Shown here: positions 1 through 36,917 of the stretch, piece after piece
Position numbering within the stretch: position 1 is the first letter of the stretch
How the letters are laid out: every line of letters starts with the position of its first letter
DNA from: a plasmid
Strand: one strand, 5' to 3'
Sequence record: NZ_CP144727.1
DNA: 38,106 bases
Notes under the pieces: model-generated
What the model was told of the DNA's origin: nothing
Databases searched by the model: none
What the model saw: the letters and a program-made list of their open reading frames with translations, nothing else
Program-made: the position numbers and the translations under genes

Positions 1-270
1 CTCGGCCAGGCCGCTGGCTTCCTCGCAATGGGTGCCATCCTCCAGCCGCAGTAGCTCGGCGATTTCGTCCAGGCTAAAGCCCAGCCGCTGGGCCGATTTC
101 ACGAACCGCACTCGTGTTACATCCGCCTCGCCATAGCGGCGAATGCTGCCATAGGGCTTGTCTGGCTCCGGCAGCAGGCCCTTGCGCTGGTAGAACCGGA
201 TGGTCTCCACATTGACCCCGGCCGCCTTGGCAAAAACGCCAATGGTCAGATTCTCAAAATTAATTTGCAT
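1..270 (-). CDS. merR: MerR Hg(II)-responsive regulator, N-terminal 90 codons (ATG at 270..268); gene runs off left edge, its 3' end is at 37921..38106
   Basis: Reverse translation [90 protein letters not shown] matches Tn21/Tn501 MerR; divergent to merT. Confidence 0.9.
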
Positions 271-341
271 ATCGCTTGACTCCGTACATAACTACGGAAG
301 TAAGCTTAAGCTATCCAAACCAAATTTGAAAGGACAAGCGT
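271..341. promoter_or_regulatory. mer operator/promoter: -35 TTGACT, MerR dyad TCCGTACATAACTACGGAAG in long spacer, -10 TAAGCT; RBS AGGACAAGCG before merT
   Basis: Dyad symmetry and spacing as in the Tn501/Tn21 merO/P between divergent merR and merT. Confidence 0.7.
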
Positions 342-752
342 ATGTCTGAACCACAAAAGTCTGAACCACAAAAGTCTGAACCACAAAAGTCTGAACCACA
401 AAAGTCTGAACCACAAAACGGGCGCGGCGCGCTCTTCGCCGGTGGGCTGGCCGCCATTCTTGCGTCGGCCTGCTGCCTGGGGCCGCTGGTTTTGATCGCC
501 TTGGGGTTCAGCGGGGCATGGATCGGCAACCTGACGGTGCTGGAACCCTATCGCCCGATCTTCATCGGCGCAGCGCTGGTCGCGCTGTTTTTCGCCTGGC
601 GGCGCATCTACCGCCCGGCGCAAGCCTGCAAACCGGGTGAGGTCTGCGCGATTCCCCAAGTGCGAGCTACTTACAAGCTCATTTTCTGGATCGTGGCCGC
701 GCTGGTCCTGGTCTCGCTCGGATTTCCCTACGTCATGCCATTTTTCTATTAA
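342..752 (+). CDS. merT: MerT mercuric ion transporter with 20-aa N-terminal (SEPQK)x4 insertion
   Basis: MSEPQ...NGRGALFAGGLAAILASACCLGPLVLIALGFSGAWIGNLTVLEPYRPIFIG..., CC motif in TM1, canonical MerT apart from repeat. Confidence 0.9.
   Translation: MSEPQKSEPQKSEPQKSEPQKSEPQNGRGALFAGGLAAILASACCLGPLVLIALGFSGAWIGNLTVLEPYRPIFIGAALVALFFAWRRIYRPAQACKPGEVCAIPQVRATYKLIFWIVAALVLVSLGFPYVMPFFY
345..419 (+). repeat. Perfect tandem array, 5 copies of 15-bp unit TCTGAACCACAAAAG (last copy ends AAAAC), in-frame in merT codons 2-26
   Basis: Direct reading of 345-419; canonical merT has a single copy (MSEPQNGRG). Confidence 0.9.
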
Positions 753-767
753 TCACAGGAGTTCATC

Positions 768-1043
768 ATGAAAAAACTGTTTGCCGCCCTCGCCCTCGCT
801 GCCGTTGTTGCCCCCGTGTGGGCCGCCACCCAGACCGTCACGCTGTCCGTGCCTGGCATGACCTGCGCCTCTTGCCCGATCACTGTCAAGCACGCGCTTT
901 CCAAGGTTGAGGGCGTGAGCAAGACCGACGTAAGTTTCGACAAGCGCCAGGCCGTCGTCACCTTCGACGATGCCAAGACCAACGTCCAGAAGTTGACCAA
1001 GGCGACCGAGGACGCGGGCTATCCGTCCAGCCTCAAACGCTGA
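768..1043 (+). CDS. merP: MerP periplasmic Hg(II)-binding protein (signal peptide, GMTCASC HMA motif)
   Basis: MKKLFAALALAAVVAPVWAATQTVTLSVPGMTCASCPITVK... Confidence 0.9.
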   Translation: MKKLFAALALAAVVAPVWAATQTVTLSVPGMTCASCPITVKHALSKVEGVSKTDVSFDKRQAVVTFDDAKTNVQKLTKATEDAGYPSSLKR

Positions 1044-1070
1044 TCCGTTAACCGAACTCGGGAGCGACAC

Positions 1071-3220
<2,150 letters not shown>

Positions 3221-3237
3221 GGAAAAGGAGGTGTTCA

Positions 3238-3603
3238 ATGAGCGCCTACACAGTGTCCCGGCTGGCCCTTGATGCCGGGGTGAGCGTGCATATCGTGCGC
3301 GACTACCTGCTGCGCGGATTGCTACGGCCGGTCGCGTACACCACGGGCGGCTACGGCTTGTTCGATGACACCGCGTTGCAACGGCTGCGCTTTGTACGGG
3401 CTGCCTTCGAAGCGGGTATCGGCCTGGACGCACTGGCGCGGCTGTGCCGGGCGCTGGATGCTGCGGACGGTGACGGTGCGTCTGCGCAGCTTGCCGTGTT
3501 GCGGCAACTCGTCGAGCGTCGGCGCGAGGCCCTGGCCAGCCTCGAAATGCAACTGGCCGCCATGCCAACCGAACCGGCACAGCACGCGGAGAGTCTGCCA
3601 TGA
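3238..3603 (+). CDS. merD: MerD secondary regulator (MerR-like HTH); ATG at 3238 preferred over upstream ORF-track start
   Basis: [31 protein letters not shown]... matches MerD; RBS AAAGGAGG upstream. Confidence 0.85.
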
Positions 3604-3836
3604 ACAGCCCAGAGCACTTGCCGTCTGAGACGCACAAACCGATCACCGGCTACTTGTGGGGCGCGCTGGCCGTGCTCACCTGTCCCTGCCATTTGCCGAT
3701 TCTCGCCATTGTGCTAGCCGGCACGACGGCCGGCGCGTTCATCGGGGAGCACTGGGGTATTGCAGCCCTCACGCTGACCGGCTTGTTTGTCCTGTCTGTG
3801 ACGCGGCTGCTGCGGGCCTTCAAGGGAAGATCATGA
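3600..3836 (+). CDS. merE: MerE small membrane Hg transporter
   Basis: 78 aa, [10 protein letters not shown] motif, 4-nt overlap with merD. Confidence 0.85.
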
Positions 3837-3901
3837 CCGCTTCCCAGCCAGCCGAGAGTGGGCAGCTTTGAGCTTCGCTACCAATCTGGAGGAGTACCAC
3901 C

Positions 3902-4114
3902 ATGAACGCAAACGCCCCGAACACTGCCAGTTGCACCACCTGCTGCGTATGCTGCAAAGAAATTCCGCTCGATGCCGCCTTCACCCCGGAAGGCGCGGAA
4001 TACGTCGAACATTTCTGCGGGCTGGATTGCTATGAACGCTTCCAGGCACGCGCCAAGGCCGCGACAGAATCTGACATTGCGCCTGTCCCTGGCGGTTCGC
4101 AGCCGTCAGATTGA
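3902..4114 (+). CDS. Small Cys-rich protein (CTTCCVCC...C..DC), DUF3330-like, in the urf2 position downstream of merE
   Basis: 70-aa ORF with strong RBS GGAGGAG 8 nt upstream; 8 Cys in metal-binding-like arrangement. Confidence 0.5.
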
Positions 4115-4119
4115 GGCAT

Positions 4120-4280
4120 ACCCTAACTTGATGTCAGGCAGGGCCGCGCCGCTTCGTCAGAATAGAGTCTGCTTTCCCATTTTTTGACACATGCCCGCGA
4201 AGGTTATAGATTTCAGCCTGACAGAAATGGGCTTTGAGGCACAACGGAACAGAAAGTGCACTTAAGCCGCCTTCAACCAA
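4120..4280. promoter_or_regulatory. Putative res (resolution) site and tnpR promoter region
   Basis: Inverted TGTCAGGC / GCCTGACAG motifs in the interval immediately upstream of tnpR, as in Tn21-subgroup res. Confidence 0.45.
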
Positions 4281-4289
4281 GGAGACATC

Positions 4290-4850
4290 GTGCAGGGGCA
4301 CCGCATCGGCTACGTCCGGGTCAGCAGCTTTGACCAGAACCCGGAACGCCAGCTGGAACAAACCCAGGTGAGCAAGGTGTTCACCGACAAGGCATCGGGC
4401 AAGGACACCCAGCGCCCCCAGCTCGAAGCGCTGCTGAGCTTCGTCCGCGAAGGCGATACAGTGGTGGTGCACAGCATGGATCGGCTGGCCCGCAACCTCG
4501 ATGACCTGCGTCGCTTGGTACAGAAGCTGACTCAGCGCGGCGTGCGCATCGAGTTCCTGAAGGAGGGCCTGGTGTTCACTGGCGAGGACTCGCCGATGGC
4601 CAACCTGATGCTGTCGGTGATGGGGGCCTTCGCTGAGTTCGAGCGCGCCCTGATCCGCGAGCGGCAGCGTGAGGGCATCGCCTTGGCCAAGCAGCGTGGC
4701 GCGTACCGGGGCCGCAAGAAAGCCCTGTCCGATGAGCAGGCTGCTACCCTGCGGCAGCGAGCGACGGCCGGCGAGCCCAAGGCGCAGCTTGCCCGCGAGT
4801 TCAACATCAGCCGGGAAACCCTCTACCAGTACCTCCGCACGGACGACTGA
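4290..4850 (+). CDS. tnpR: TnpR serine recombinase resolvase (Tn21/Tn501 subgroup)
   Basis: 186 aa, MQGHRIGYVRVSSFDQNPERQ..., catalytic Ser, C-terminal HTH. Confidence 0.9.
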   Translation: MQGHRIGYVRVSSFDQNPERQLEQTQVSKVFTDKASGKDTQRPQLEALLSFVREGDTVVVHSMDRLARNLDDLRRLVQKLTQRGVRIEFLKEGLVFTGEDSPMANLMLSVMGAFAEFERALIRERQREGIALAKQRGAYRGRKKALSDEQAATLRQRATAGEPKAQLAREFNISRETLYQYLRTDD

Positions 4851-4853
4851 CAC

Positions 4854-7781
4854 ATGCCGCGTCGCTTGATCCTCTCGGCCACGGAGCGGGACACCCTGCT
4901 TGCGCTGCCGGAAAGCCAGGATGACCTGATCCGCTACTACACCTTCAACGACTCCGACCTGTCGCTGATCCGCCAGCGACGCGGCGACGCCAACCGCCTC
5001 GGCTTCGCCGTGCAGCTCTGCCTGCTGCGCTACCCCGGTTACGCGCTGGGAACCGACAGCGAGCTGCCCGAGCCGGTCATCCTGTGGGTGGCGAAGCAAG
5101 TCCAGGCCGAGCCGGCGAGCTGGGCAAAGTACGGCGAGCGCGACGTGACCCGTCGCGAGCATGCCCAGGAACTGCGCACCTACCTGCAACTGGCCCCGTT
5201 CGGCCTGTCCGACTTCCGCGCCCTGGTGCGCGAGCTAACCGAGCTGGCCCAGCAGACCGACAAAGGCTTGCTGCTGGCCGGTCAGGCCCTGGAGAGCCTA
5301 CGGCAGAAACGACGCATCCTGCCGGCGCTGAGCGTGATTGACCGGGCCTGCTCGGAAGCCATTGCGCGAGCCAATCGGCGGGTCTACCGCGCCCTGGTCG
5401 AACCACTCACGGACTCGCATCGGGCCAAGCTGGACGAGCTGTTGAAGCTCAAGGCCGGCAGCAGCATCACCTGGTTGACCTGGCTGCGCCAGGCACCGCT
5501 GAAACCCAACTCTCGGCACATGCTGGAACACATCGAGCGGCTGAAGACATTTCAGTTGGTGGACTTGCCCGAAGGCCTGGGCCGGCACATCCACCAGAAC
5601 CGCCTGCTCAAGCTGGCCCGCGAGGGTGGGCAGATGACGCCCAAAGACCTCGGTAAGTTCGAGCCGCAGCGCCGCTACGCGACCCTGGCCGCCGTGGTGC
5701 TGGAGAGCACCGCGACCGTGATCGATGAGCTGGTCGATCTGCATGACCGCATCCTGGTCAAGCTGTTCAGCGGCGCGAAGCACAAGCATCAGCAGCAGTT
5801 CCAGAAGCAGGGCAAGGCGATCAACGACAAGGTGCGCCTGTACTCCAGGATCGGCCAGGCGCTGCTGGAAGCGAAGGAAAGCGGCAGCGACCCCTATGCC
5901 GCCATCGAGGCGGTGATTCCCTGGGACGAGTTCACCGAGAGCGTCAGCGAGGCCGAGCTGCTGGCCCGGCCGGAAGGCTTCGACCACCTGCACCTGGTCG
6001 GCGAGAACTTCGCCACCCTGCGCCGTTACACGCCGGCCTTGCTGGAGGTGCTGGAACTGCGCGCCGCGCCGGCCGCGCAAGGCGTGCTGGCAGCCGTGCA
6101 GACCCTGCGTGAGATGAACGCCGACAACCTGCGCAAGGTGCCGGCCGATGCACCCACGGCCTTCATCAAGCCGCGCTGGAAGCCGCTGGTGATCACCCCG
6201 GAAGGCCTCGACCGGAAATTCTACGAAATCTGCGCCCTGTCCGAGCTGAAGAACGCCCTGCGCTCCGGCGACATCTGGGTCAAGGGCTCGCGGCAGTTCC
6301 GCGACTTCGACGACTACCTGCTGCCGGCCGAGAAGTTCGCCGCACTCAAGCGCGAGCAGGCCCTGCCCCTGGCGATCAACCCGAACAGCGACCAGTACCT
6401 GGAAGAGCGTTTGCAGCTGCTGGACGAGCAGTTGGCCACCGTCACCCGCCTGGCCAAGGACAACGAGCTGCCCGATGCCATCCTCACCGAGTCAGGGCTG
6501 AAAATCACCCCGCTGGATGCGGCGGTGCCGGATCGGGCGCAGGCGCTGATCGACCAAACCAGCCAGTTACTGCCGCGCATCAAGATCACCGAACTGCTGA
6601 TGGACGTGGACGACTGGACGGGCTTCAGCCGCCACTTCACCCACTTGAAGGACGGGGCCGAGGCCAAAGACAGGACGTTGCTGCTGTCCGCAATCCTCGG
6701 TGATGCGATCAACCTCGGGCTGACCAAGATGGCCGAGTCGAGCCCCGGCCTGACCTACGCCAAGCTGTCCTGGCTGCAAGCCTGGCACATCCGCGACGAA
6801 ACCTATTCGGCGGCCTTGGCCGAGCTGGTCAACCACCAGTATCGCCACGCCTTTGCCGCCCACTGGGGCGACGGCACGACCTCATCCTCCGATGGCCAGC
6901 GCTTCCGCGCGGGTGGCCGGGGCGAGAGCACCGGGCACGTCAACCCGAAGTACGGTAGCGAGCCGGGACGGCTGTTCTATACCCATATCTCCGACCAGTA
7001 CGCGCCGTTCAGCACCCGCGTGGTGAATGTCGGCGTCCGCGATTCCACCTATGTGCTCGACGGCCTGCTGTACCACGAGTCCGACCTGCGGATCGAGGAG
7101 CACTACACCGACACGGCCGGCTTCACCGATCACGTCTTTGCCCTGATGCACCTGCTAGGCTTCCGCTTCGCGCCGCGCATCCGCGACCTCGGCGAAACCA
7201 AGCTGTACGTGCCGCAGGGCGTGCAAGCCTACCCGACGTTGCGCCCGCTGATCGGCGGCACCCTGAACATCAAGCACGTGCGTGCCCACTGGGACGACAT
7301 CCTGCGCCTGGCCAGCTCGATCAAGCAGGGCACCGTCACCGCCTCGCTGATGCTGCGCAAGCTCGGCAGCTACCCGCGCCAGAACGGACTGGCCGTGGCC
7401 CTGCGCGAGCTGGGCCGGATCGAGCGCACGCTGTTCATCCTGGACTGGCTGCAAAGTGTTGAACTGCGCCGCCGCGTGCATGCCGGCCTGAACAAAGGTG
7501 AGGCGCGCAACTCGCTGGCCAGGGCGGTGTTCTTCAACCGCCTTGGGGAAATCAGGGATCGGAGCTTCGAGCAGCAGCGCTACCGGGCCAGCGGCCTCAA
7601 CCTGGTGACGGCGGCTATCGTGCTGTGGAACACGGTGTACCTGGAACGCGCCACCCAGGGGTTGGTCGAGGCCGGCAAGCCGGTGGACGGCGAGCTGCTG
7701 CAATTCCTGTCGCCGCTGGGCTGGGAGCACATCAACCTAACCGGCGATCATGTACAGAACCTTAAGCGGCAAGCGAATTAA
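4854..7781 (+). pseudogene. tnpA: Tn3-family (Tn21 subgroup) transposase tnpA, interrupted after codon ...NLTGD by IS insertion; ORF reads 10 codons into the IS and stops
   Basis: 975-aa ORF typical of Tn21/Tn501 TnpA up to 7748; native C-terminus [23 protein letters not shown] resumes in frame at 11174. Confidence 0.85.
7739..7748. repeat. Left copy of 10-bp target site duplication AACCGGCGAT
   Basis: Identical 10-mer at 11164..11173 immediately outside the opposite IS end. Confidence 0.75.
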
Positions 7782-9137
7782 TAATACCGTCTAACGTGTT
7801 GTTTTGCTTGGATTTTCTCTGCCTACTCTTTTTGCCGTTTTTGGATAAATACACCATTGCCCACTCCAACTTCTCTGTTATTTCCTGCCACGCACCATGG
7901 ATGATGCTCGCCAATATCGGCATTAACCAAAGCGCGCTGTTTTTGGCAATCTTCAGCATCGATAACTCCGCGCTGCCAATCAGCGTCAGCGCCAGCCGAC
8001 GTTTGACCAGCAAGGCCAGCAAACTAGCCCAGATCAAGCCTTCCGCTATCGCTTTTTGTCGTGTCGCGAACGCCTTCAACCGGTTATGTGATTTCAGCTC
8101 TTTGAACAACAGTTCGATCTGCCAACGGCAACGATACAATGCCATCACCTTCTCGGCTGGCCATCGCTCACGCGGAAGATTGGTCATCCATATACAGAAC
8201 CGTTTTTCCTCTGCAAACCAACGTCTTATTAGTCGATATTTATACTTTCCCGAACTCACATCCAGATCCAGAACCTCGGCTCTGCAGCTTCTCCGATCGA
8301 TATCCTTGAGCTTTTTTCCGAGTAACTTGGGCATTTCCCTGCCGTCCTGTCGGTAAGCTGCCTGTACTTTGGGATTGAGATTTTGACTCCCTCTGACCAG
8401 ATAGCTTCCTTTGGCTTTGGTCACATCAGCAAAGTACTCGCGGCTGATGTAACCGGCATCCGCCAATAACAGTTTGTTATTTAACGAATTTGCGGCCGGA
8501 AGATGCTTGCGCTCCGATTCGGTATCCGCCGTGATACTCATCGATATCGGCGACTGGTCCAGCAAGGACATGGTCATATGACACTCTACCGCAGCGGGGC
8601 TGTGCTTATTGAATCGGCCCGGGAAATGTTCTGCCAATTGCGGATGTAACGCGAATGACGACCCGTCCTGCAGCAGTACCTGCTCAAAGCCTGCCAGTCC
8701 GTGGGCGTCCGGTAGACACTCCTTGAGGCGTAAGGCGATGGCTCGTTCAACCAGTGCGCGCATGAACAAGGGAAAACCCTGCTTGCGTAACTGGTTGTGA
8801 AAGGGTTTATACGCTATTTGGTCAGTATCATGGAGCTGCAACGCATTGAAATGGCGATGCAAACCAGCAATACCATCCACCTTGTCGCAACCAAGCCCTG
8901 AGAGCAGAGCCGGGAGTAGTCTCGCAGGCTGGATATCCCGGAGTCGCTGACAAAAACCGGTAAATTTACCGATCCGGTTGAGTTCAGAAGAGCTAAGAAG
9001 TTGCTTGAGGTACTGGGTTGCATTGATAATAGTCATGGCTTCGGGCGTGTCGGTTTTTTTTTGCGATTAAATCAGATCACAAACGAAGCCTTTTTTCTAT
9101 CTATTTCAATTGGTTGTAGCTAAAGATCCTGTACATG
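7749..9137 (-). mobile_element. IS4-family insertion sequence copy A (1389 bp), termini CATGTACAG[A/G]A[C/T]CTT[A/T]AGC inverted
   Basis: Terminal IRs at 7749-7769 and 9119-9137; single DDE transposase ORF. Confidence 0.7.
7762..9036 (-). CDS. IS4-family DDE transposase (424 aa)
   Basis: DAGY...D...[15 protein letters not shown] (Y-2-R-3-E-6-K signature of IS4/IS5 DDE transposases). Confidence 0.75.
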
Positions 9138-9192
9138 ACAGGTCACTGCAGCGGCCAAACTGTTGCCACATCTCAGTTCAGGAGGAAACGCA

Positions 9193-9564
9193 ATGACTCA
9201 GGAAAGGATCCAGACCCGCTACCCACTCGGCGGCCCCTTCGCCACCCAGGCTGAGCTGGAGCAGGCCATCACCCAGGCCATAACGACCCACAGACAAGAT
9301 TTCTTCCCTCTGCTGGAACGGCTGGTGGACGTGGGGGACACCCGGGTCAACCTCAGTCAGGAGAACCCGCTGCGGGTGCTCAGCATCGAACTCGCTGACG
9401 GCCGTGAAGGAGTGGCCCATATCAACTACGAGTCCAACTTCGCCGAGAGCTGCCTGATTATCAACGAATACGACCAGCACCAGACCAGCCTGGCCTTTCG
9501 CCTCGACGGGGATGCACTTATCTTCGACGTCGAACTGCCGATCGCGTGGAATTTCAATAACTGA
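9193..9564 (+). CDS. Hypothetical passenger protein, 123 aa (ATG at 9193 with GGAGG RBS; ORF-track start 9163 is TTG)
   Basis: Only ORF in the 641-bp segment between the two IS copies; acidic, no recognisable motif. Confidence 0.55.
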   Translation: MTQERIQTRYPLGGPFATQAELEQAITQAITTHRQDFFPLLERLVDVGDTRVNLSQENPLRVLSIELADGREGVAHINYESNFAESCLIINEYDQHQTSLAFRLDGDALIFDVELPIAWNFNN

Positions 9565-9626
9565 AGATTCAGCGGTGTAATGCCGCCTGGTTGCTACACC
9601 CGGTCAGCCAGCTCCCCTCACCCTAA

Positions 9627-9647
9627 CCCTCTCCCAAAGGGAGAGGG
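9627..9647 (+). other. Perfect 9-bp stem / 3-nt loop hairpin CCCTCTCCCAAAGGGAGAGGG downstream of passenger ORF (no T-tract)
   Basis: Direct reading. Confidence 0.4.
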
Positions 9648-9779
9648 GATCAGCCCGTGCCAACCTCCAGCCGTGGTAGTCACTCCATACTCTGCTGTTA
9701 TTTCAGGCGCCTGTAATCTTCCCCATATGGCTGTCATCTGAATAGCAATATCCAGCATATAGCCACCATAACCCTCACT

Positions 9780-11163
9780 CATGTACAGGATCTTTAGCGG
9801 CAACCAATTGAAATAGATATAAAAAAGGCTTCGTTTGTGATCTGATTTTATCGCCAAACAAAATCAACACGCGCGAAGCCTATGACTATTATCAACGCTA
9901 ATTACTATCTGGAGCAACTCTTGGCTCCCGCCGCACTCGAGCGCATTGCTCGGCTCTGCAAGTTTTGTCTGCGTCAGCGTGCCATTACCCCAGCCATGCT
10001 CGTACCTGCACTGCTGCGGGCCATGGGAGGCGACCAGGTCAATGACATTGCCGGTTTACACCGCCATTTCAATGCCTTGCAACTGGTAAACACCCATCAG
10101 GTTTCTTACAAACCGTTTCACAATCAGCTGCGCAAAGAGAGCTTTGCCCTGTTTATGAAAGCCCTGGTCGAGCGGGCCATCGCCTTGCGTATCGACCATC
10201 AACTCAAAGCAGCCTCCCTCGGCGCGTTCAAGCAGGTGTTACTGCACGATGGCACCTCCTTTGCGGTGCATCGGCGCCTTGCTGCTGATTTTCCCGGCCG
10301 GTTCAAGACCATCAGTCCGGCAGCTATCGAGTGCCATATGACCATGTCACTGTCGGAGCAGAGCCCGTTGTGCATGAGTGTGTCTGCCGATACCGCAGGG
10401 GAACGGCAATTTCTGCCTGAAGCCCACACGCTGACCAACTGCCTGCTGCTGGCTGACGCAGGTTACATTGACAGGGCTTGGTTTGAGCAGGTGAACGACG
10501 CTGGCGGATTTTATCTGGTGCGCGGCACGAAAAGCCTGAACCCCAAGATAATCCAAGCCTGGCGCGGTGATGGACGGGAAGTACCCAAGCTGGCGGGACT
10601 ATCTCTGAGAGAGGCCGGACGGCGACGCTGTCGGGCCGAGGTACTGGATATGGTGGTGAAGTCCGGCCAGGTCGAGTACCGGTTGATCCGGCGCTGGTTT
10701 GCTGAGGAAAAGCGGTTCTGTCTGTGGATGACGAACCTACCGCGAGCAGCATGGTCAGCAGAGCAGGTGATGAGCCTGTATCGCTGCCGTTGGCAGGTGG
10801 AGTTGTTATTTAAAGAGTGGAAATCGCACAACCGGCTCAAGGGGTTTGTGACGGGCGAGAAAGCGATTGCCGAGGGGTTGGTGTGGACGAGCCTGCTGTC
10901 GCTGGTGATGAAGAGACGGGTCGCGCAGAGTGTGATGAGTGGGGCGCTATCGATGCTGAAAGCGTCGAAGAACAGTGCGACGTGGTGGCTACCGCTATTG
11001 GAAGCAGTGGCCCATAGGGCGCTGACAGAAATAAGGGAAAGATTGGAATGGGCTGCCGATTATTTGGCCAAGAACGCCTGCCGAACCAAGCAGAGAAAGT
11101 CGATACAGAACAGGACCTTGGAAGGCGTTTTAAATGGACTCGCCGCTTAAGGTCCTGTACATG
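9780..11163 (+). mobile_element. IS4-family insertion sequence copy B (1384 bp), inverted relative to copy A
   Basis: Termini CATGTACAGGATCTTTAGC ... CCGCTTAAGGTCCTGTACATG; first ~75 bp nearly identical to inner end of copy A. Confidence 0.7.
9882..11150 (+). CDS. IS4-family DDE transposase (422 aa), ~60% identical to copy A transposase
   Basis: Same motifs (DAGY, YRCRWQVELLFKEWK). Confidence 0.75.
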   Translation: MTIINANYYLEQLLAPAALERIARLCKFCLRQRAITPAMLVPALLRAMGGDQVNDIAGLHRHFNALQLVNTHQVSYKPFHNQLRKESFALFMKALVERAIALRIDHQLKAASLGAFKQVLLHDGTSFAVHRRLAADFPGRFKTISPAAIECHMTMSLSEQSPLCMSVSADTAGERQFLPEAHTLTNCLLLADAGYIDRAWFEQVNDAGGFYLVRGTKSLNPKIIQAWRGDGREVPKLAGLSLREAGRRRCRAEVLDMVVKSGQVEYRLIRRWFAEEKRFCLWMTNLPRAAWSAEQVMSLYRCRWQVELLFKEWKSHNRLKGFVTGEKAIAEGLVWTSLLSLVMKRRVAQSVMSGALSMLKASKNSATWWLPLLEAVAHRALTEIRERLEWAADYLAKNACRTKQRKSIQNRTLEGVLNGLAA

Positions 11164-11173
11164 AACCGGCGAT
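11164..11173. repeat. Right copy of 10-bp target site duplication AACCGGCGAT
   Basis: See 7739..7748. Confidence 0.75.
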
Positions 11174-11245
11174 TACGTCTGGCGGCAGAGCCGCAGACTG
11201 GAAGACGGGAAGTTTCGGCCCTTACGGATGCCCGGAAAACCTTAG
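11164..11245 (+). pseudogene. tnpA: 3' remnant of interrupted tnpA (encodes [26 protein letters not shown])
   Basis: In-frame continuation of 4854..7748 once IS composite and one TSD copy are removed. Confidence 0.8.
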
Positions 11246-11278
11246 CGTACGATTTTTTCCGAATTCTGCGGGCTCCCC
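11241..11278. repeat. 38-bp terminal inverted repeat (IRtnp) of the Tn21/Tn501-subgroup transposon: CTTAGCGTACGATTTTTTCCGAATTCTGCGGGCTCCCC
   Basis: Matches Tn501-type IR; overlaps tnpA stop. Confidence 0.8.
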
Positions 11279-11330
11279 TATTAGCGTAGAGAAAAGTGTT
11301 GGACCATTTTGAGTCGTGGTTATGCGTGAA

Positions 11331-11407
11331 GACTATAGCGTCAGTCCAGTATGATTTCCCAATACCCTGTAGCTATAGTTTCGATAGCTTCGAATCGGCA
11401 TTGCAGG
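11331..11407 (+). repeat. Copy A of ~75-bp conserved element (GACTATAGC...GCTATAGTTTCGATAGC...TTGCAGG)
   Basis: ~70% identical to copies at 11592..11667 (inverted) and 20619..20688 (direct). Confidence 0.6.
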
Positions 11408-11591
11408 CGTATCCCCGTCAGCGGATTTCGAGCGGACGCCGTCGCTTGCCAACGTTGGTGTGAGACCGGCGGGCGAGATCGCCCCTGCCAACGCGACCGC
11501 TGAGAGGTCGACTCCTCAACCGCTTGGGCGCTTATCGCCTCCATCCGGATGCTCACCCGCCGAACAGCAATAAACCGCTATTTTCGATAAA

Positions 11592-20721: not shown

Positions 20722-21327
20722 CTAAGCGTTAGCTCTGTGTCGTTGCACGATGTCAGCGACGGTATTCTTGCTGATACCGAGCTCGCGTGCGATCCAGCGA
20801 TAGCTGCGTCCCTCGGCCCTCATCGCAACCACCTTAGGCAAAAGTCGGTCTGATTTTGGTCGCACTCCGGCCTGACGACCAAGCCTCTTACCACGTGCCT
20901 TCGCAACAGCAAGGCCTGACTTGACCCGCTCGCTGATGAGATCCCGCTCAAACTCCGCAATGCCGGAAAGAAACGTCGCCAGCATTCGTCCATACGGCGA
21001 CGAAAGATCGAACGCCATTCCATTCATGGCTATCACGGAAACCTTCCAGTTCTCCAGTTCACGTAGCGTATTGAGCAGATCGAGCGTCGAGCGCCCCCAC
21101 CGGGAAAGCTCAGTGACCAGGATTGCATCAATTTGTCTGGACTGGGCAAGCGCCAGGACTTTCTTTCGCTCGGCCCGGTCGAGTTTAGTTCCTGAACCTG
21201 TTTCCTTAAATATTCCCACCACGTCGTAGCCGGCACGGCCGGCGAAGGCTCGCAGATCAAATTCCTGGCGTTCACAAGACTGATCCGCTGTTGAAACCCG
21301 GCAGTAAATGGCGGCACGATGTCCCAA
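20722..21327 (-). CDS. tnpR: Serine recombinase resolvase TnpR
   Basis: IYCRVSTADQ...RQ catalytic motifs, C-terminal HTH. Confidence 0.85.
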   Translation of the reverse strand: MGHRAAIYCRVSTADQSCERQEFDLRAFAGRAGYDVVGIFKETGSGTKLDRAERKKVLALAQSRQIDAILVTELSRWGRSTLDLLNTLRELENWKVSVIAMNGMAFDLSSPYGRMLATFLSGIAEFERDLISERVKSGLAVAKARGKRLGRQAGVRPKSDRLLPKVVAMRAEGRSYRWIARELGISKNTVADIVQRHRANA

Positions 21328-21421: not shown

Positions 21422-24319
21422 ATGTCACGACGCCATATTTTCACCGAACGGCAGCGAGCAGCGCTGTTCGATCTGCCCACGGACGAACTGTCGCTACTGA
21501 AGTTCTACACGCTGGGCGATGATGACCTGGAAAACATTAGGCAGCGCCGCAGACCGGAAAACAGGATTGGCTTTGCCCTGCAACTTTGTGCCTTACGATA
21601 TCCGGGCCGTGCACTGGCTCCTGGTGAGATGATCCCGCGTGAAGTCCTTTCCTTCGTCGGTGCTCAGCTTGGAGTTCCGGCTGATGCGCTTCTCACTTAT
21701 GCCACACGGCGCCAAACCCGTCAGCAGCACATGGACACGCTGCGCGAAATTTACGGCTACAAGACCTTCACGGGCCGTGGTGCCCGTGATCTGCGGGAGT
21801 GGACTTTCGGCCAGGCCGAAGATGCCAGATCAAACGAGGATCTTGCTCATCGTTTTATTGTGCGGTGTCGGGAAACTTCCACCATTCTGCCCGCAGTATC
21901 GACAATCGAGCGCTTGTGCGCGGATGCTCTGGTCGCCGCTGAGCGGCGGATTGAAACGCGGATTGCGGAAAATTTAACAGCGGATGTTCGCGATCACCTG
22001 GACAAACTTCTGAGTGAAATGCTCGCCGGCAATATCAGTCGTTTCATCTGGCTTCGCAACTTCGAGGTTGGTAACAACTCGGCTGCTGCTAACCGTTTGC
22101 TCGACAGGCTCGAATTTCTGCGTACCCTGAATATCAATCATAGTGCTTTGGCCAGCATACCTGCCCATCGCATTGCCCGGCTGCGTCGGCAGGGTGAACG
22201 CTACTTCACCGACGGTTTGCGTGACATCACTTCGGACCGCCGCTGGGCGATCCTTGCCGTCTGTGTTGTGGAGTGGGAAGCGGCGATTGCTGATGCCATA
22301 GTCGAAACCCATGACAGGATCGTAGGAAAAACCTGGCGGGAAGCGAAGCGCCAGCATGACGAAACAATTTCCGGCTCTAAAGCCACACTCACGGATACGA
22401 TCCGTACCTTCACCGCGCTGGGAGCTTCGTTGCTTGAGGCCCGCAGTGACGGAACCCCGCTGGAGATGGCTGTCGCCAGTTCGGTTGCATGGGACCGGCT
22501 CGCTCAACTGGTAGCGACAGGGACTCAACTCAGCAACACGCTAGCCGATGAGCCTCTTGCATATGTCGGGCAGGGATACCATCGCTTTCGTCGTTATGCG
22601 CCCCGCATGTTGCGCTGTCTGAAGCTCGAAGCCGCGCCGGTCGCCGGACCATTGGTAGCAGCAGCTTTGTCGATCGGAGAGATGAAAGGTGTTGCATCGC
22701 CAGAAAGGCGTTTCCTGCGGCCCAGCTCCAAATGGAACCGTCATTTACGAGCTCAGGAAAAAGGAGATACCCGTCTTTGGGAAGTGGCGGTACTCTTTCA
22801 CCTCCGGGATGCTTTTCGTTCCGGAGATGTCTGGCTCGCTCATTCGCGCCGCTATGGTGACCTCAAGCAGGTACTGGTGCCGATGATCGCGGCGCAGGAA
22901 AATGCAAAACTGGCCGTGCCTTCCAACCCACAGGATTGGCTGGCAGACAGAAAGGCGCGACTCACGATCGCTCTTAAGCGGCTGGCCCGGGCTGCCCGTA
23001 ACGGCACTATTCCGCACGGTAGCATAGAAGATGGAACGTTGCGGATCGACAGGTTGACAGCAGACGTGCCGGATGGTGCCGAGGCACTCATACTGGATCT
23101 GTATCGCCGAATGCCGTCCGTTCGGATTACCGACATGCTGCTTGAAGTTGATGCAGCCCTTGGTTTCACAGATGCGTTTACCCATCTGAGAACCGGGGCT
23201 CCATGTCGCGACCGGATCGGTCTGCTCAACGTCCTGCTCGCTGAAGGGCTCAATCTGGGCCTGCGTAAGATGGCGGAAGCTACAAACACGCATGATTACT
23301 GGCAGCTCTCACGCCTTGCCCGCTGGCATGTTGAAAGCGAAGCCATGAACCAGGCATTGGCAATTGTGGTGGCCGCGCAGGGTAAACTGCCGATGTCACG
23401 CGTCTGGGGGATGGGCACGTCAGCATCGAGCGATGGTCAGTTTTTCCCGACAGCGCGGCATGGCGAAGCCATGAACATGGTCAATGCCAAATATGGTTCT
23501 GTTCCCGGCCTCAAAGCGTATACTCACGTAAGCGACCAGTTCGCGCCATTCGCTTGTCAGTCGATCCCGGCGACCGTGAGCGAGGCACCGTATATTCTCG
23601 ATGGACTACTGATGAACGAGGTCGGTCGCCATGTTCGCGAACAGTATGCCGATACAGCAGGATTCACCGACCATTTGTTCGGAGCCAGTAGCCTGCTCGG
23701 CTACAATCTCGTTCTGCGAATCAGGGATCTGCCATCGAAGCGGTTGTACGTATTTAATCCCGATACGACCCCCAGGGAGTTACGCAAGTTGGTAGGTGGA
23801 AAAGCCCGGGAGGATCTTATCGTTGCGAACTGGCCTGATATTTTCCGTTGTGCCGCGACGATGACCGCTGGCAAAATCAGGCCCAGCCAACTCCTGCGCA
23901 AGCTCGCTTCTTACCCACGACAAAACAACCTTGCAGTTGCGCTTCGTGAAGTTGGTCGTATTGAACGGACCCTTTTCATTATTGAGTGGATCCTGGATAC
24001 GGACATGCAGCGGCGTGCTCAGATCGGTCTTAACAAGGGAGAGGCCCACCATGCGCTCAAAAATGCGCTCCGTATCGGGAGGCAGGGGGAAATTCGCGAT
24101 CGCACGACAGAGGGGCAGCACTACCGAATCGCTGGGCTCAATTTATTGACTGCGGTGATCATTTACTGGAATACCGTCCATCTTGGTCATGCCGTCACGG
24201 AGCGGCGGAACGAAGGGTTGGATGTTCCCCCTGAATTTCTTCCCCACATATCCCCATTGGGCTGGGCGCACATTCTACTGACTGGCGAATATCTTTGGCC
24301 CAAGGAACCGAAAGCTTAG
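21422..24319 (+). CDS. tnpA: Tn3-family DDE transposase TnpA (965 aa)
   Basis: Full-length homolog of the 4854.. TnpA; C-terminus ISPLGWAHILLTGEY. Confidence 0.9.
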   Translation: MSRRHIFTERQRAALFDLPTDELSLLKFYTLGDDDLENIRQRRRPENRIGFALQLCALRYPGRALAPGEMIPREVLSFVGAQLGVPADALLTYATRRQTRQQHMDTLREIYGYKTFTGRGARDLREWTFGQAEDARSNEDLAHRFIVRCRETSTILPAVSTIERLCADALVAAERRIETRIAENLTADVRDHLDKLLSEMLAGNISRFIWLRNFEVGNNSAAANRLLDRLEFLRTLNINHSALASIPAHRIARLRRQGERYFTDGLRDITSDRRWAILAVCVVEWEAAIADAIVETHDRIVGKTWREAKRQHDETISGSKATLTDTIRTFTALGASLLEARSDGTPLEMAVASSVAWDRLAQLVATGTQLSNTLADEPLAYVGQGYHRFRRYAPRMLRCLKLEAAPVAGPLVAAALSIGEMKGVASPERRFLRPSSKWNRHLRAQEKGDTRLWEVAVLFHLRDAFRSGDVWLAHSRRYGDLKQVLVPMIAAQENAKLAVPSNPQDWLADRKARLTIALKRLARAARNGTIPHGSIEDGTLRIDRLTADVPDGAEALILDLYRRMPSVRITDMLLEVDAALGFTDAFTHLRTGAPCRDRIGLLNVLLAEGLNLGLRKMAEATNTHDYWQLSRLARWHVESEAMNQALAIVVAAQGKLPMSRVWGMGTSASSDGQFFPTARHGEAMNMVNAKYGSVPGLKAYTHVSDQFAPFACQSIPATVSEAPYILDGLLMNEVGRHVREQYADTAGFTDHLFGASSLLGYNLVLRIRDLPSKRLYVFNPDTTPRELRKLVGGKAREDLIVANWPDIFRCAATMTAGKIRPSQLLRKLASYPRQNNLAVALREVGRIERTLFIIEWILDTDMQRRAQIGLNKGEAHHALKNALRIGRQGEIRDRTTEGQHYRIAGLNLLTAVIIYWNTVHLGHAVTERRNEGLDVPPEFLPHISPLGWAHILLTGEYLWPKEPKA

Positions 24320-25681: not shown

Positions 25682-26577
25682 TGGATTGGCCCCTATATTT
25701 CCATACACTTTTTATCACTTAACCCATTACTGGTTCGCCGCCGCAGATATTCCCGTGGCGAACGATACCCCAGTGCACTATGCGGATGCCATTCGTTGTA
25801 ATGTTCGAAGGCCTCCGCAAGGTTCTTTACCGCTTTTAACCCGTCGGGTTTCGGCATGATACTTATGTAATCGCGCTTCATCGTTTTCACGAAGCTCTCT
25901 GCCATCCCGTTGCTTTCCGGGCTACGTACCGCCGTATGTTCAGGCTCCAGTCCTACCATTCTGGCGAACTGACGCGTCTGATAAGAACGGTAGGCTGGAC
26001 CGTTGTCTGTCAGCCACTCAACTGGGGATGTCGGCAGGCTGTTACCGAAGCGACGCTCCACGGCACCCAGCATGACGTCCTGCACGGTTTCACTGTCATA
26101 TCCACCGTTACTGGCCGCCCAGTAAAGTGCCTCGCGATCGCAACAGTCCAGAGCGAACGTGACCCGCAGTTTTTCACCGTTATCACAGCTGAACTCGAAG
26201 CCGTCAGAGCACCACCGCTGGTTACTTTCTCCAACGGCCACTTTCCCTGTATGCGCCCGCTTCGATGGCGGTATTTCCGGTTTACGCTCAAGCAGCAGCG
26301 CATTCTGACGCATGATGCGGTATACACGTTTGGCATTGATCACCGCCATGTCGTCAGTTTCTGATTGTCTGCGCAGCAGTGCCCATACCCGACGATAACC
26401 ATAGGTGGGCAGATCACCGATAACGGTATGGATACGGGCCAGCGCGTCAGTATCATCAGGCTTGCGCTTGCACCGACGATCCTGCCAGTCCTTCGACCGA
26501 CGGGCCATGGCATGCAGTTGCGCACGTGAGACCCGGAGGCAACGACTGACAAGGCTTATTCGCCATCCTCTTATCAT
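25682..26577 (-). mobile_element. IS2-like (IS3 family) fragment: right end with IR TGGATTGGCCCCTATATTTCCA and 5'-truncated orfB; orfA and left end missing
   Basis: IS2 IRR match at 25682-25703; junction with unrelated DNA near 26578. Confidence 0.8.
25693..26577 (-). CDS. insD: IS2 InsD (orfB) integrase-core transposase, N-terminally truncated
   Basis: [20 protein letters not shown]...DDTD...RWCSDGFEF...[13 protein letters not shown] matches IS2 InsD. Confidence 0.85.
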
Positions 26578-27542: not shown

Positions 27543-27556
27543 TGAGCAACCAAAAA

Positions 27557-27641
27557 CTACAGATAAACTACAGATAAACTACAAAAAACGTGACAGACTA
27601 CAAATAGACTACAAGAAAACTACAGATAAACTACAAAACTC
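27557..27641 (+). repeat. Array of seven 11-bp direct repeats (CTACAGATAAA x3, CTACAAAAAAC, CTACAAATAGA, CTACAAGAAAA, CTACAAAACTC), one 8-bp interruption
   Basis: Direct reading; helical-period spacing typical of centromere/iteron arrays. Confidence 0.7.
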
Positions 27642-29145: not shown

Positions 29146-30240
<1,095 letters not shown>

Positions 30241-30434: not shown

Positions 30435-30710
30435 GTGGCTTCCATCTCCATCAGTTGTCCCTCCTGCTCAGCTACTGAAGGCGTGGTGCGTAACGGTAAA
30501 AGTACTGCCGGACATCAGCGCTATCTCTGCTCTCACTGCCGTAAAACATGGCAGCTACAGTTCACTTACACCGCCTCTCAGCCCGGTACACACCAGAAAA
30601 TTATTGATATGGCCATGAATGGCGTCGGATGTCGCGCCAGTGCACGCATTATGGGCGTTGGCCTCAACACGATTTTACGACACTTAAAAAACTCAGGCCG
30701 CAGTCGGTAA
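30435..30710 (+). CDS. insA: IS1 InsA
   Basis: 91 aa. Confidence 0.9.
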
Positions 30711-31132
30711 ACTCACGCATACAACCGGGCAGTGACGTCATTGTTTGCGCGGAAATGGACGAACAGTGGGGTTACGTCGGCGCTAAATCACGCCAGCGCT
30801 GGTTGTTTTACGCGTATGACAGGATACGGAGGACGGTTGTGGCGCACGTATTCGGTGAACGCACGTTGGCCACGCTGGAGCGTCTTCCGGGCCTGCTGTC
30901 GGCCTTTGAGGTCGTGGTATGGATGACGGATGACTGGCCGCTGTATGAATCATGCCTGAAGGGAAAGCTGCACGTTATCAGCAAGCGTTACACTCAGCGC
31001 ATTGAGCGGCATAACCTGAATCTGAGGCAGCATCTGGCAAGGCTGGGCAGGAAGTCACTGTCGTTCTCAAAATCGGTGGAGCTGCATGACAAAGTCATCG
31101 GGCATTATCTGAACATAAAACACTATCAGTAA
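30629..31132 (+). CDS. insB: IS1 InsB frame (expressed as InsAB' by -1 frameshift)
   Basis: 167 aa. Confidence 0.9.
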
Positions 31133-31685: not shown

Positions 31686-32891
31686 ATGGACAATATTGAG
31701 CAGTTACGGAAAGTTGCTACACGTGCAGGTAAGCTTCTGACATCTTTGAGCGAGAGTATCCGCCAGCAAAAAGAGGAATTGAAGCTTACCGAGTTCTATC
31801 AGGAATACAGCAAAGCCGCTCTGTATAAGCTGCCTAAGCTCAGTAAAGGCAGTGTTGAGTATGCTGTGGCCGAAATGGAAGCCGGTGGCTACATTTTCAA
31901 AAAGAAACCTTCTGGCAATACGATGAAATACGCGATGACGATTCAGAATGTCATCGATCTGTATAACCATCGTAAAGTACCCAAGTACAGGGATCGCTTT
32001 GATAAAGCCTTTACGATTTTTGTATGTAATCTTAAAGGTGGTGGTTCCAAGACAGTTTCTACCGCTTCATTATCACATGCTTTTCGAGCTCATCCTCAGC
32101 TTCTGTTCGAAGACCTGCGTATTCTGGCCATCGATTTCGATCCGCAGGCATCTCTGACAATGTTCCTGAGCCATGAAAATTCAGTGGGCCTGGTTGAAAA
32201 TACGGCTGCTCAGGCCATGCTCCAGAACGTGTCTCGTGAAGAATTACTTTCCGATTTTATAGTACCGTCTATTATCCCTGGTGTTGATGTAATCCCCGCT
32301 TCCATTGACGATGCATTCCTTGCTGAAGGCTGGAAGGGATTGTGTGAAGAACATCTTCCAGGGAAAAATATTCATGCTGTGCTTAAAGATAACATTATCG
32401 ATAAGCTCCAGCATGACTACGACTTTATTTTCCTTGATAGTGGTCCTCACCTTGATGCGTTCCTGAAAAACTGTATTGGGGCGGCAGACCTGATGTTGAC
32501 CCCTCTTCCACCGGCTACGGTTGATTTTCATTCTTCCCTGAAGTTTGTGGCCAGCCTCCCTGCCCTCATAGATTCCGTTGAAATGGATGGGCACACCTGC
32601 AATCTCATCGGTAATGTCGGCTTCATGTCCAAGATCCTGAACAAGTCTGATCACAAAATTTGCCATAGTCAGGCCAAAGAGGTTTTCGGTGCCGATATGC
32701 TAGACATGGTTCTGCCGAGACTGGATGGTTTCGAACGCTGTGGGGAGACTTTTGACACAGTTATTTCAGCAAATCCAGCAACCTATGATGGAAGTACAGA
32801 GGCACTAAAAAGCGCAAAATCAGCAGCGGAAGACTTTGCGAAGGCAGTCTTTGATCGCATCGAGTTCATTCGTACTAACGGAGGTATGTGA
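31686..32891 (+). CDS. parA: Type Ia partition ATPase ParA (P1 ParA / SopA-like, with N-terminal HTH)
   Basis: 401 aa, Walker A NLKGGGSKT, very similar to P1 ParA. Confidence 0.9.
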   Translation: MDNIEQLRKVATRAGKLLTSLSESIRQQKEELKLTEFYQEYSKAALYKLPKLSKGSVEYAVAEMEAGGYIFKKKPSGNTMKYAMTIQNVIDLYNHRKVPKYRDRFDKAFTIFVCNLKGGGSKTVSTASLSHAFRAHPQLLFEDLRILAIDFDPQASLTMFLSHENSVGLVENTAAQAMLQNVSREELLSDFIVPSIIPGVDVIPASIDDAFLAEGWKGLCEEHLPGKNIHAVLKDNIIDKLQHDYDFIFLDSGPHLDAFLKNCIGAADLMLTPLPPATVDFHSSLKFVASLPALIDSVEMDGHTCNLIGNVGFMSKILNKSDHKICHSQAKEVFGADMLDMVLPRLDGFERCGETFDTVISANPATYDGSTEALKSAKSAAEDFAKAVFDRIEFIRTNGGM

Positions 32892-33865
32892 TGTCGAATG
32901 AGAAAAGAAAAACTATCGGCAGACAGTTAAATACCCAGGCGTCAATTGCGGAAATGACGGACACCGGTAGAAGCCAGGTATTTACCTTAAAAACCGGCAG
33001 GAAGGTAACGTTCAGGTTTGTTCGGGTGCCTGCATCTGAAGTTGAAAGTAAGACCTTCGTAAACCAGGAAAACAACGGAAGAGATCAACTTGCACTGACC
33101 AGGGAGTCCCTGAAATCCATTATCCAGACGATTAAGTTTCAGCAGTTCTTTCCCTGTATTGGTATTAAGCAAAGTGAAAGGATTGAGATACTGGATGGTT
33201 CAAGACGGCGAGCCTCAGCAATTTTTGTCCGTACAGGCCTTGATGTAATGGTTACCGAAGAGCATTTATCAGCTGATGAAGCTCGCCAACTGGCTAAAGA
33301 TATCCAGACAGCTAAAGAACATAATCTTCGGGAGATTGGCCTGAGATTGATCGCTCTTAAAGAGTCCGGATTTAATCAAAAGGAAATTGCTGAACTGGAG
33401 GGGTTATCTCAAGCTAAAGTTACCAGGGCGCTGCAGGCGGCGGCCGTACCGCAAGACTTGATTTCTCTGTTCCCGGTTCAGTCGGAGCTATCGTTTAGTG
33501 ACTATAAACTTCTTTTAGAAGTTAATGAAAAACTCAGTGAAAAGGGATTAACGCCTGAAGAACTCATTCAGTCTGTATCAGCTCAGCTCGATGCAATTTT
33601 GAGTGAAGGCGAGCGACCAGAAGACGAACAGAAAGCCAGTATACTGAAGCTGATTTCTCAGGCATCTCAGGCATTGATAGATCCATCTCCCAAGGAAAAG
33701 TCAGTGGTTTCCCCACTCTGGTCTTTTGAAGAAAAGGACAAGTTCGCGCGTAAGCGTGTGAAAGGGCGTACGCTGACTTATGAGTTTAGCCGTATGTCAA
33801 AAGTGATTCAGGATGAACTGGACAAGGCTATCAACGAGGTCCTTGACAGAAATTTGAGTCAATAA
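32888..33865 (+). CDS. parB: Centromere-binding ParB (P1 ParB-like)
   Basis: 325 aa, ParB N-terminal box (ILDGSRRRAS), 4-nt overlap with parA. Confidence 0.85.
   Translation: MMSNEKRKTIGRQLNTQASIAEMTDTGRSQVFTLKTGRKVTFRFVRVPASEVESKTFVNQENNGRDQLALTRESLKSIIQTIKFQQFFPCIGIKQSERIEILDGSRRRASAIFVRTGLDVMVTEEHLSADEARQLAKDIQTAKEHNLREIGLRLIALKESGFNQKEIAELEGLSQAKVTRALQAAAVPQDLISLFPVQSELSFSDYKLLLEVNEKLSEKGLTPEELIQSVSAQLDAILSEGERPEDEQKASILKLISQASQALIDPSPKEKSVVSPLWSFEEKDKFARKRVKGRTLTYEFSRMSKVIQDELDKAINEVLDRNLSQ

Positions 33866-35721: not shown

Positions 35722-36917
<1,196 letters not shown>

Follow-up and report, generated by a model that had tools for sequence, protein, structure and literature searches.

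A Tn1696-type merT gene with a five-unit in-frame tandem repeat of variable unit number at its 5' end

Introduction

The start codon of the merT gene analysed here is followed at once by five copies of the same 15-nt sequence. The gene belongs to a mercury-resistance operon at the beginning of the window, the whole stretch of 38,106 nt taken from plasmid record NZ_CP144727.1. The locus raises the question of whether such an array is genuine, how it arose, and whether it alters the mercury transporter that it extends. The N-terminus of MerT lies in the cytoplasm, and the functional role of its two cysteine pairs, one within the first transmembrane helix and the other in the loop that precedes the last helix, is known. 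Here, we compare the array with merT alleles in public proteins, plasmids, genomes and metagenomes. The array with which this Tn1696-type merT begins is probably a natural in-frame variable-number tandem repeat (VNTR) that changes by slippage after a first duplication and encodes a near-neutral tail.

Results

Structure and reading frame of the array

Tandem Repeats Finder detects the array at positions 344-418 (plus strand) with period 15, 5.0 copies, 100% matches, 0 indels, a score of 150 and consensus GTCTGAACCACAAAA. Direct reading gives the same five perfect head-to-tail units, immediately 3' of the merT start codon, and the program finds no other outstanding tandem array in the whole window. 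The probability that a 15-mer is followed by four more exact copies of itself at fixed spacing is ~7.5e-37 per position and ~3e-32 over the window; a chance origin is excluded. The unit length is a multiple of three, and all units are 100% identical, as in a coding VNTR.

The open reading frame at 342..752 (plus strand) encodes 136 residues and opens with MSEPQKSEPQKSEPQKSEPQKSEPQNGRG. In codon phase, positions 345-419 read TCT GAA CCA CAA AAG four times and then TCT GAA CCA CAA AAC, so that the encoded N-terminus is M(SEPQK)4SEPQNGRG and the protein has 136 residues compared with the 116 of the shorter form. The original prediction, an in-frame 15-bp repeat present five times at the N-terminus of MerT, agrees with Tandem Repeats Finder, direct reading and the list of open reading frames, and the four added SEPQK units and the preserved frame that it described are seen in the translation. 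Its placement of the array at 345-419 is right for the codon phase, but its unit, TCTGAACCACAAAAG, occurs only four times there, the fifth copy ending in C (TCTGAACCACAAAAC). Five perfect copies need the phase 344-418, because that phase takes in the G of the ATG.

The extended protein and its operon

The assignment of 342..752 to merT is based on the list of open reading frames, Pfam PF02411, hydropathy and the merT annotation of identical public records. Residues 22-136 match positions 2-116 of the 116-position PF02411 profile (E = 3.1e-63; 211.4 bits against a cut-off of 32.9). Because PF02411 covers residues 22-136, the 20 extra residues (residues 2-21, four extra SEPQK units) constitute an insertion right behind Met1 and outside the MerT family model. 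Hydrophobic segments are centred at residues 37-53 and 115-127; one Cys-Cys pair lies within the first of them (ASACCLGP), and the second cysteine pair lies in AQACKPGEVC. The full-length profile match, both cysteine pairs and the gene order, a divergent merR followed by merT-merP-merC-merA, are those of the MerT family.

The N-terminal extension precedes the first hydrophobic segment, has a mean Kyte-Doolittle value of -2.6, and contains five K/R and five D/E residues, giving a net charge of zero. From the topology of MerT, the extra 20-residue tail would be cytoplasmic and would not need to cross the membrane, and it is presumably disordered.

Upstream of merT, the segment 276..306 (plus strand) contains TTGACT (276-281), a 19-bp spacer within which lies the MerR dyad TCCGTA..TACGGA (281-298), and TAAGCT (301-306), which we take to be the divergent mer promoter/operator from the established architecture of PmerT. 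A generic sigma-70 promoter scan, which permits spacers of 16-18 nt only, gave no match, as expected from the 19-bp spacer of PmerT. The array begins ~30 nt downstream of the inferred transcription start. A Shine-Dalgarno-like AGGA (331..334, plus strand) is located 7 nt 5' of the merT ATG.

The window opens inside merR; the 5' part of this gene, with its start codon at 268-270, occupies 1..270 on the minus strand, and public records in which it is annotated merR show no difference from the window in the 341 bp that precede merT. On the other side, merP (768-1043), merC (1071-1496), merA (1535-3220), merD (3238-3603) and merE (3600-3836) follow on the plus strand, assigned from the list of open reading frames and the annotation of identical records. 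Specifically, 768..3836 has 0 mismatches to four public records in which these genes are annotated (L001, L004, L007 and L008). The merRTPCADE order adjoins tnpR and tnpA of the Tn21 subgroup (open reading frames within 1-7781), the arrangement of a Tn1696-type mer module, and in public twins of the module the annotated genes include a recombinase gene and one labelled 'Tn3-like element TnAs1 family transposase'.

Unit number in public sequences

Synthetic MerT sequences with n units were looked up by exact match against ~15 billion proteins. The window-type protein with one to eight units was found on 876, at least 1000, at least 1000, 989, 171, 18, 7 and 1 contigs, respectively, counts that mirror the sampling of clinical isolates, include entries of at least 1000, and are not allele frequencies. 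Window-type proteins with 9 or 10 units were absent from the same ~15 billion proteins. The three-unit protein is Swiss-Prot MERT_ENTAG, and the five-unit protein, that of the window, is UniRef O06513_ECOLX and the RefSeq entry 'MULTISPECIES: mercuric ion transporter MerT'.

The nucleotide records give a corresponding picture. With a 271-bp query spanning the array, 2029 plasmid records were matched, over spans of 301, 271, 256, 241, 226 and 211 bp that correspond to 7, 5, 4, 3, 2 and 1 units. Among 60 rows sampled evenly from the 2029, two units were present in 27, one unit in seven, four units in five, and three, five and seven units in one each; the other 18 are partial matches to other mer types. 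Complete E. coli genomes show the same unit-number classes. A scan for the unit junction in one genome per species returned 23 loci with 2-5 units, whose hosts are Enterobacterales as well as Alishewanella, Rheinheimera, Aliidiomarina, Vibrio and Nitrosomonas. Metagenome contigs with 2, 3, 4 and 5 units numbered 8, 6, 9 and 1, respectively. Within all arrays examined, the units are identical in sequence. Two further metagenome contigs (L034 and L035) were discarded, because they match the 23-nt junction pattern through a chance-similar duplicated motif, ACTGAACCACAAAAGTCTGAACCACAAAAAAC, in an unrelated AT-rich coding region.

Thus, the suggestion that the array may vary in copy number is borne out by alleles of 1-8 units, including mer operons that are otherwise without difference. 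Alignment with public merT alleles, proposed together with that suggestion, identifies the five-unit array as a minority state of a lineage in which 2-4 units are usual, and the window allele is one to three steps from the common alleles of this lineage.

These data also bear on whether the true array could be shorter and the five units a product of faulty assembly or sequencing. Assemblers can break at the repeat, as at least one metagenome contig (L048) stops inside it. Against this stand the length of the array, 75 bp, which is shorter than ordinary reads; the recurrence of the exact 136-residue protein on its 171 contigs, which come from several sources; and the presence of the same array in the complete plasmid NZ_CP110904.1, in two species-representative genomes (L013 and L018) and in a gut metagenome contig (L039). 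On this comparison of records, an artefact is very unlikely.

The same haplotype with different unit numbers

For haplotype comparison with the window, we used 341 bp upstream and 3418 bp downstream of the array, to the end of merE, 3759 bp in total. Operons with 0 mismatches over the 3759 bp carry two units (L007 and L022), three units (L009), four units (L004, L008, L016 and L023) or five units (L001 and L013), and a seven-unit operon (L002) has a single mismatch. The identical mer haplotype with 2-5 units is spread over different Enterobacterales species. Longer comparisons give the same result: the window differs from CP043767.1, which has two units, by four SNPs in ~15 kb, and from NZ_CP023418.1, which has four units, by two SNPs in ~20 kb. 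Variation of unit number on identical or near-identical haplotypes is the behaviour of a coding VNTR, and judged from these records the array appears to be the fastest-changing site of the mer operon. The rate of change is not extreme, because related plasmids keep the same number: five small plasmids of Klebsiella quasipneumoniae and Aeromonas caviae all have seven units, and six E. coli plasmids of ~303.8 kb all have two.

Other merT lineages

A second array-bearing lineage, lineage B, is a mosaic. Its merR, leader, array and first ~50 codons are as in the window, while the 3' part of its merT has ~77% nucleotide identity, and a recombination breakpoint therefore lies inside merT. The identity to the window runs to ...GFSGAW, with six upstream mismatches in one locus (L021). 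Contigs of this lineage with one to six units number 7, 125, 170, at least 1000, 193 and 9. It is represented by nine loci (L011, L015, L017, L019, L021, L026, L027, L030 and L031) and is present in genomes of Alishewanella, Rheinheimera, Aliidiomarina, Alkalimonas and Pseudidiomarina; it is also abundant among Salmonella protein records.

A third, diverged lineage, lineage C, was found in Nitrosomonas ureae (L010) and a metagenome contig (L041). It has ~11% divergent flanks, a different leader, and two units with the same boundaries; one-unit and three-unit forms of its protein are absent from the searched protein collection. Its two units may stem from repeated duplication of this one site, from an old duplication whose copies have been kept identical, or from recombination.

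The remaining merT types are essentially single-unit. Tn21-type MerT is found with one unit on at least 1000 contigs versus two units on four, MERT_SERMA-type MerT with one unit on at least 1000 versus two units on one, and a third type with one unit on at least 1000 versus two units on none. In two of these normally one-unit types the unit reads CCT, not CCA. The start MSEPQNGRG with a single unit, which the original prediction had given for Tn21/Tn501 merT, is for Tn21 an exact match to MERT_SHIFL; the Tn501 protein starts MSEPKTGRG.

Origin and change of the array

The array is flanked by T on its 5' side and C on its 3' side, and the founding duplication, read directly, gives exactly 2.0 copies without flanking microhomology. 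One-unit lineages almost never show two units while array-bearing lineages vary, and we therefore infer a rare founding duplication followed by frequent gain and loss. Hairpin-promoted slippage was considered and rejected: as single-stranded DNA, the array is unstructured (z = +1.15) and unpaired in the minimum free energy structure. Because there is neither microhomology nor secondary structure of the array, plain misalignment of identical units is the simplest mechanism.

Accordingly worded as a sequence of events, the process would begin with the rare duplication of 15 nt (GTCTGAACCACAAAA), which would place two identical units next to each other. These units could then misalign during replication by slipped-strand mispairing, possibly also by unequal exchange between sister copies, and whole units would be gained or lost. 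With a unit of 15 nt, or five codons, the frame is kept in all alleles, and SEPQK pentapeptides are gained or lost after Met1. The resulting hydrophilic tail of zero net charge would be tolerated and would most likely leave Hg(II) uptake and translation initiation unchanged or nearly so. The slipped-strand, VNTR-type expansion that had been proposed for this locus is supported by the range of 1-8 units, by the identical haplotypes, and by the one-unit lineages staying at one unit.

Variation could instead come mainly from homologous, RecA-dependent exchange, by unequal crossing-over or gene conversion, among the copies of a plasmid or among different mer operons of one cell, a process that looks like slippage in sequence data. 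The mosaic nature of mer operons is consistent with such exchange: lineage B joins identical 5' parts to a diverged merT 3' part, and in two further loci (L005 and L006) identical 5' parts are followed by operons of 87-89% identity. Several records contain two mer operons, and the rare two-unit proteins of the Tn21 and MERT_SERMA backgrounds could be recombinants. However, at 30-75 bp the arrays reach at best the length that RecA-dependent exchange usually needs, and unit number differs on otherwise identical haplotypes, in which exchange with a different operon is not visible. We consider RecA-dependent exchange an unlikely main source of the variation and retain slippage of identical units.

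Expression of merT

The leader, from an inferred start at 313, and the coding region were folded for one to eight units and four downstream lengths, from 45 to 200 nt. Over this range, the energy required to open the ribosome-binding site, defined as -18..+13 or as the stretch from the Shine-Dalgarno sequence to the AUG, shifts by at most ~1.7 kcal/mol, and the sign of the shift depends on the length folded. All alleles also share the first unit, the part of the array that falls within the ribosome footprint. Thus, the suggestion that the array could affect translation initiation finds no consistent effect behind it in the folding models of 1-8 units.

On/off phase variation was likewise considered and rejected, as a unit of five codons produces no frameshift, and the array is 3' of both the ATG and the -10 element and leaves promoter spacing unchanged. 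The extension would be tolerated and would probably be near-neutral.

A different reading is that the number of SEPQK units tunes the abundance or activity of MerT, acting for example on the early coding region of the mRNA, on the stability of the protein or on its contact with MerA, and that hosts or mercury regimes select different numbers, balancing uptake against reduction. In both array-bearing lineages, multi-unit alleles outnumber the single-unit allele, though one unit should be a near-absorbing state. The array lies directly behind the start codon, where codons are known to influence expression, and has a G+C content of 40% versus 63% for the rest of merT; there is also an apparent ceiling of ~8 units. 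By contrast, the small and directionally inconsistent changes in opening energy, the identical first unit, and the position of the tail outside the conserved MerT model argue against tuning. No host pattern is evident, the haplotype with 2-5 units occurring across Enterobacterales, and the contig counts are confounded by clonal sampling. We regard tuning as improbable. The dominance of 2-4-unit alleles over a near-absorbing single unit could be a sign of weak selection to retain repeats; biased sampling is another possible explanation.

Surroundings of the mer module

Downstream of the mer module are tnpR (4290-4850) and the TnAs1-family tnpA (4854-7781), the 3' end of which is overlapped by an ISApu2 transposase gene (7762-9036, minus strand). 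Beyond this gene, within the part of the window from 4290 to 20688, lie ISApu1 and then alcohol dehydrogenase, MFS, CorA, GST and MsrA/B genes. This block has 100% identity to Aeromonas caviae plasmid NC_006143 and to other Aeromonas plasmids, and it therefore looks Aeromonas-derived and is now found on Enterobacterales plasmids.

A second Tn3-family module consists of a resolvase (20722-21327, minus strand) and a 965-residue transposase (21422-24319), both matching records annotated as the Tn5403 family. Other mobile-element genes further along encode an rve-domain (IS-type) integrase/transposase (open reading frame 25693-26577, minus strand), a transposase of IS1 (30629-31132) and an IS5-like transposase (35869-36849, minus strand). 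Intergenic positions 27554-27635 hold an imperfect tandem array with an 11-bp unit, AAACTACAGAT (7.7 copies, 72% matches). The gene of a Rep3-type initiator (29146-29949, minus strand) lies ~1.5 kb away, and the array precedes parA/parB (31686-33865). This 11-bp array may consist of protein-binding sites such as iterons, or may be a partition or regulatory site.

Discussion

The array behind the merT start codon is genuine in frame and sequence, varies in unit number among operons of the same haplotype, and is most simply explained by a rare first duplication with subsequent slippage. At the sequence level, the feature is already present in databases: the protein encoded in the window is identical to UniProt and RefSeq entries, and it represents a minority allele. 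What is new is a modest population-level description, comprising 1-8 units, two lineages and identical haplotypes. A full-text literature search, which did not reach older transposon papers, found no published description of the merT repeat; a 2001 paper on Tn1696 may note that Tn1696 and Tn5036 differ in a 15-bp repeat.

The practical value of the array is modest. It could serve as a typing marker that separates plasmids otherwise identical over 15-20 kb, and, as a fast molecular clock, it could sub-type the otherwise identical Tn1696-type mer modules of outbreak plasmids. The public eight-unit allele implies that MerT tolerates up to 35 extra residues behind Met1, and the records analysed here give no sign of a changed mercury-resistance phenotype. 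A more speculative idea is that unit number is under selection as a rheostat of MerT dosage or activity, which would match the import of toxic Hg(II) to the capacity of MerA host by host. If true, it would explain why 2-4 units prevail over one unit in two lineages and why none exceeds eight; we give it little credence.

The array can also give spurious differences, broken contigs and truncated annotations, and may thereby disturb annotation and assembly. For multi-unit alleles (L001-L005, L007 and L008), the merT calls that PLSDB takes from AMRFinder begin after the repeats, with 98-99% identity. The same records list merT only as an AMRFinder prediction, with no merT CDS row, the PLSDB gene table being incomplete. 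The searched protein collection holds many 'partial MerT' entries of 29-40 residues.

Among known systems, the closest are the Tn1696/Tn5036-type merT alleles of the databases. Their five-unit entries are without difference from the window protein, and merRTPCADE with its flanks has 0 mismatches over 3.76 kb to several records; unit number (1-8) is all that sets the other alleles apart. Tn21 MerT (MERT_SHIFL, 116 residues) shares the MSEPQNGRG N-terminus, the family and the topology, and equals the single-unit state. It differs in belonging to another merT lineage, which has several substitutions and hardly ever departs from one unit.

In-frame coding VNTRs of bacteria include loci used for MLVA typing and the X region of Staphylococcus aureus spa. 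Like these, the merT array consists of perfect head-to-tail units in multiples of three that are gained and lost stepwise on otherwise identical backgrounds. Unlike these, it is part of a mobile mercury-resistance operon and encodes the tail of an inner-membrane transporter, taken as cytoplasmic from the published topology of MerT; in contrast to the spa X region, it is not surface-exposed under immune selection, and it is short (1-8 units). With phase-variable contingency loci, the array shares repeat-mediated hypermutability near a start codon, whereas its 15-nt unit causes no frameshift and its position 3' of promoter and start codon precludes any effect on spacing, so that it provides no on/off switch. 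By kind, the merT array is an ordinary in-frame coding VNTR.
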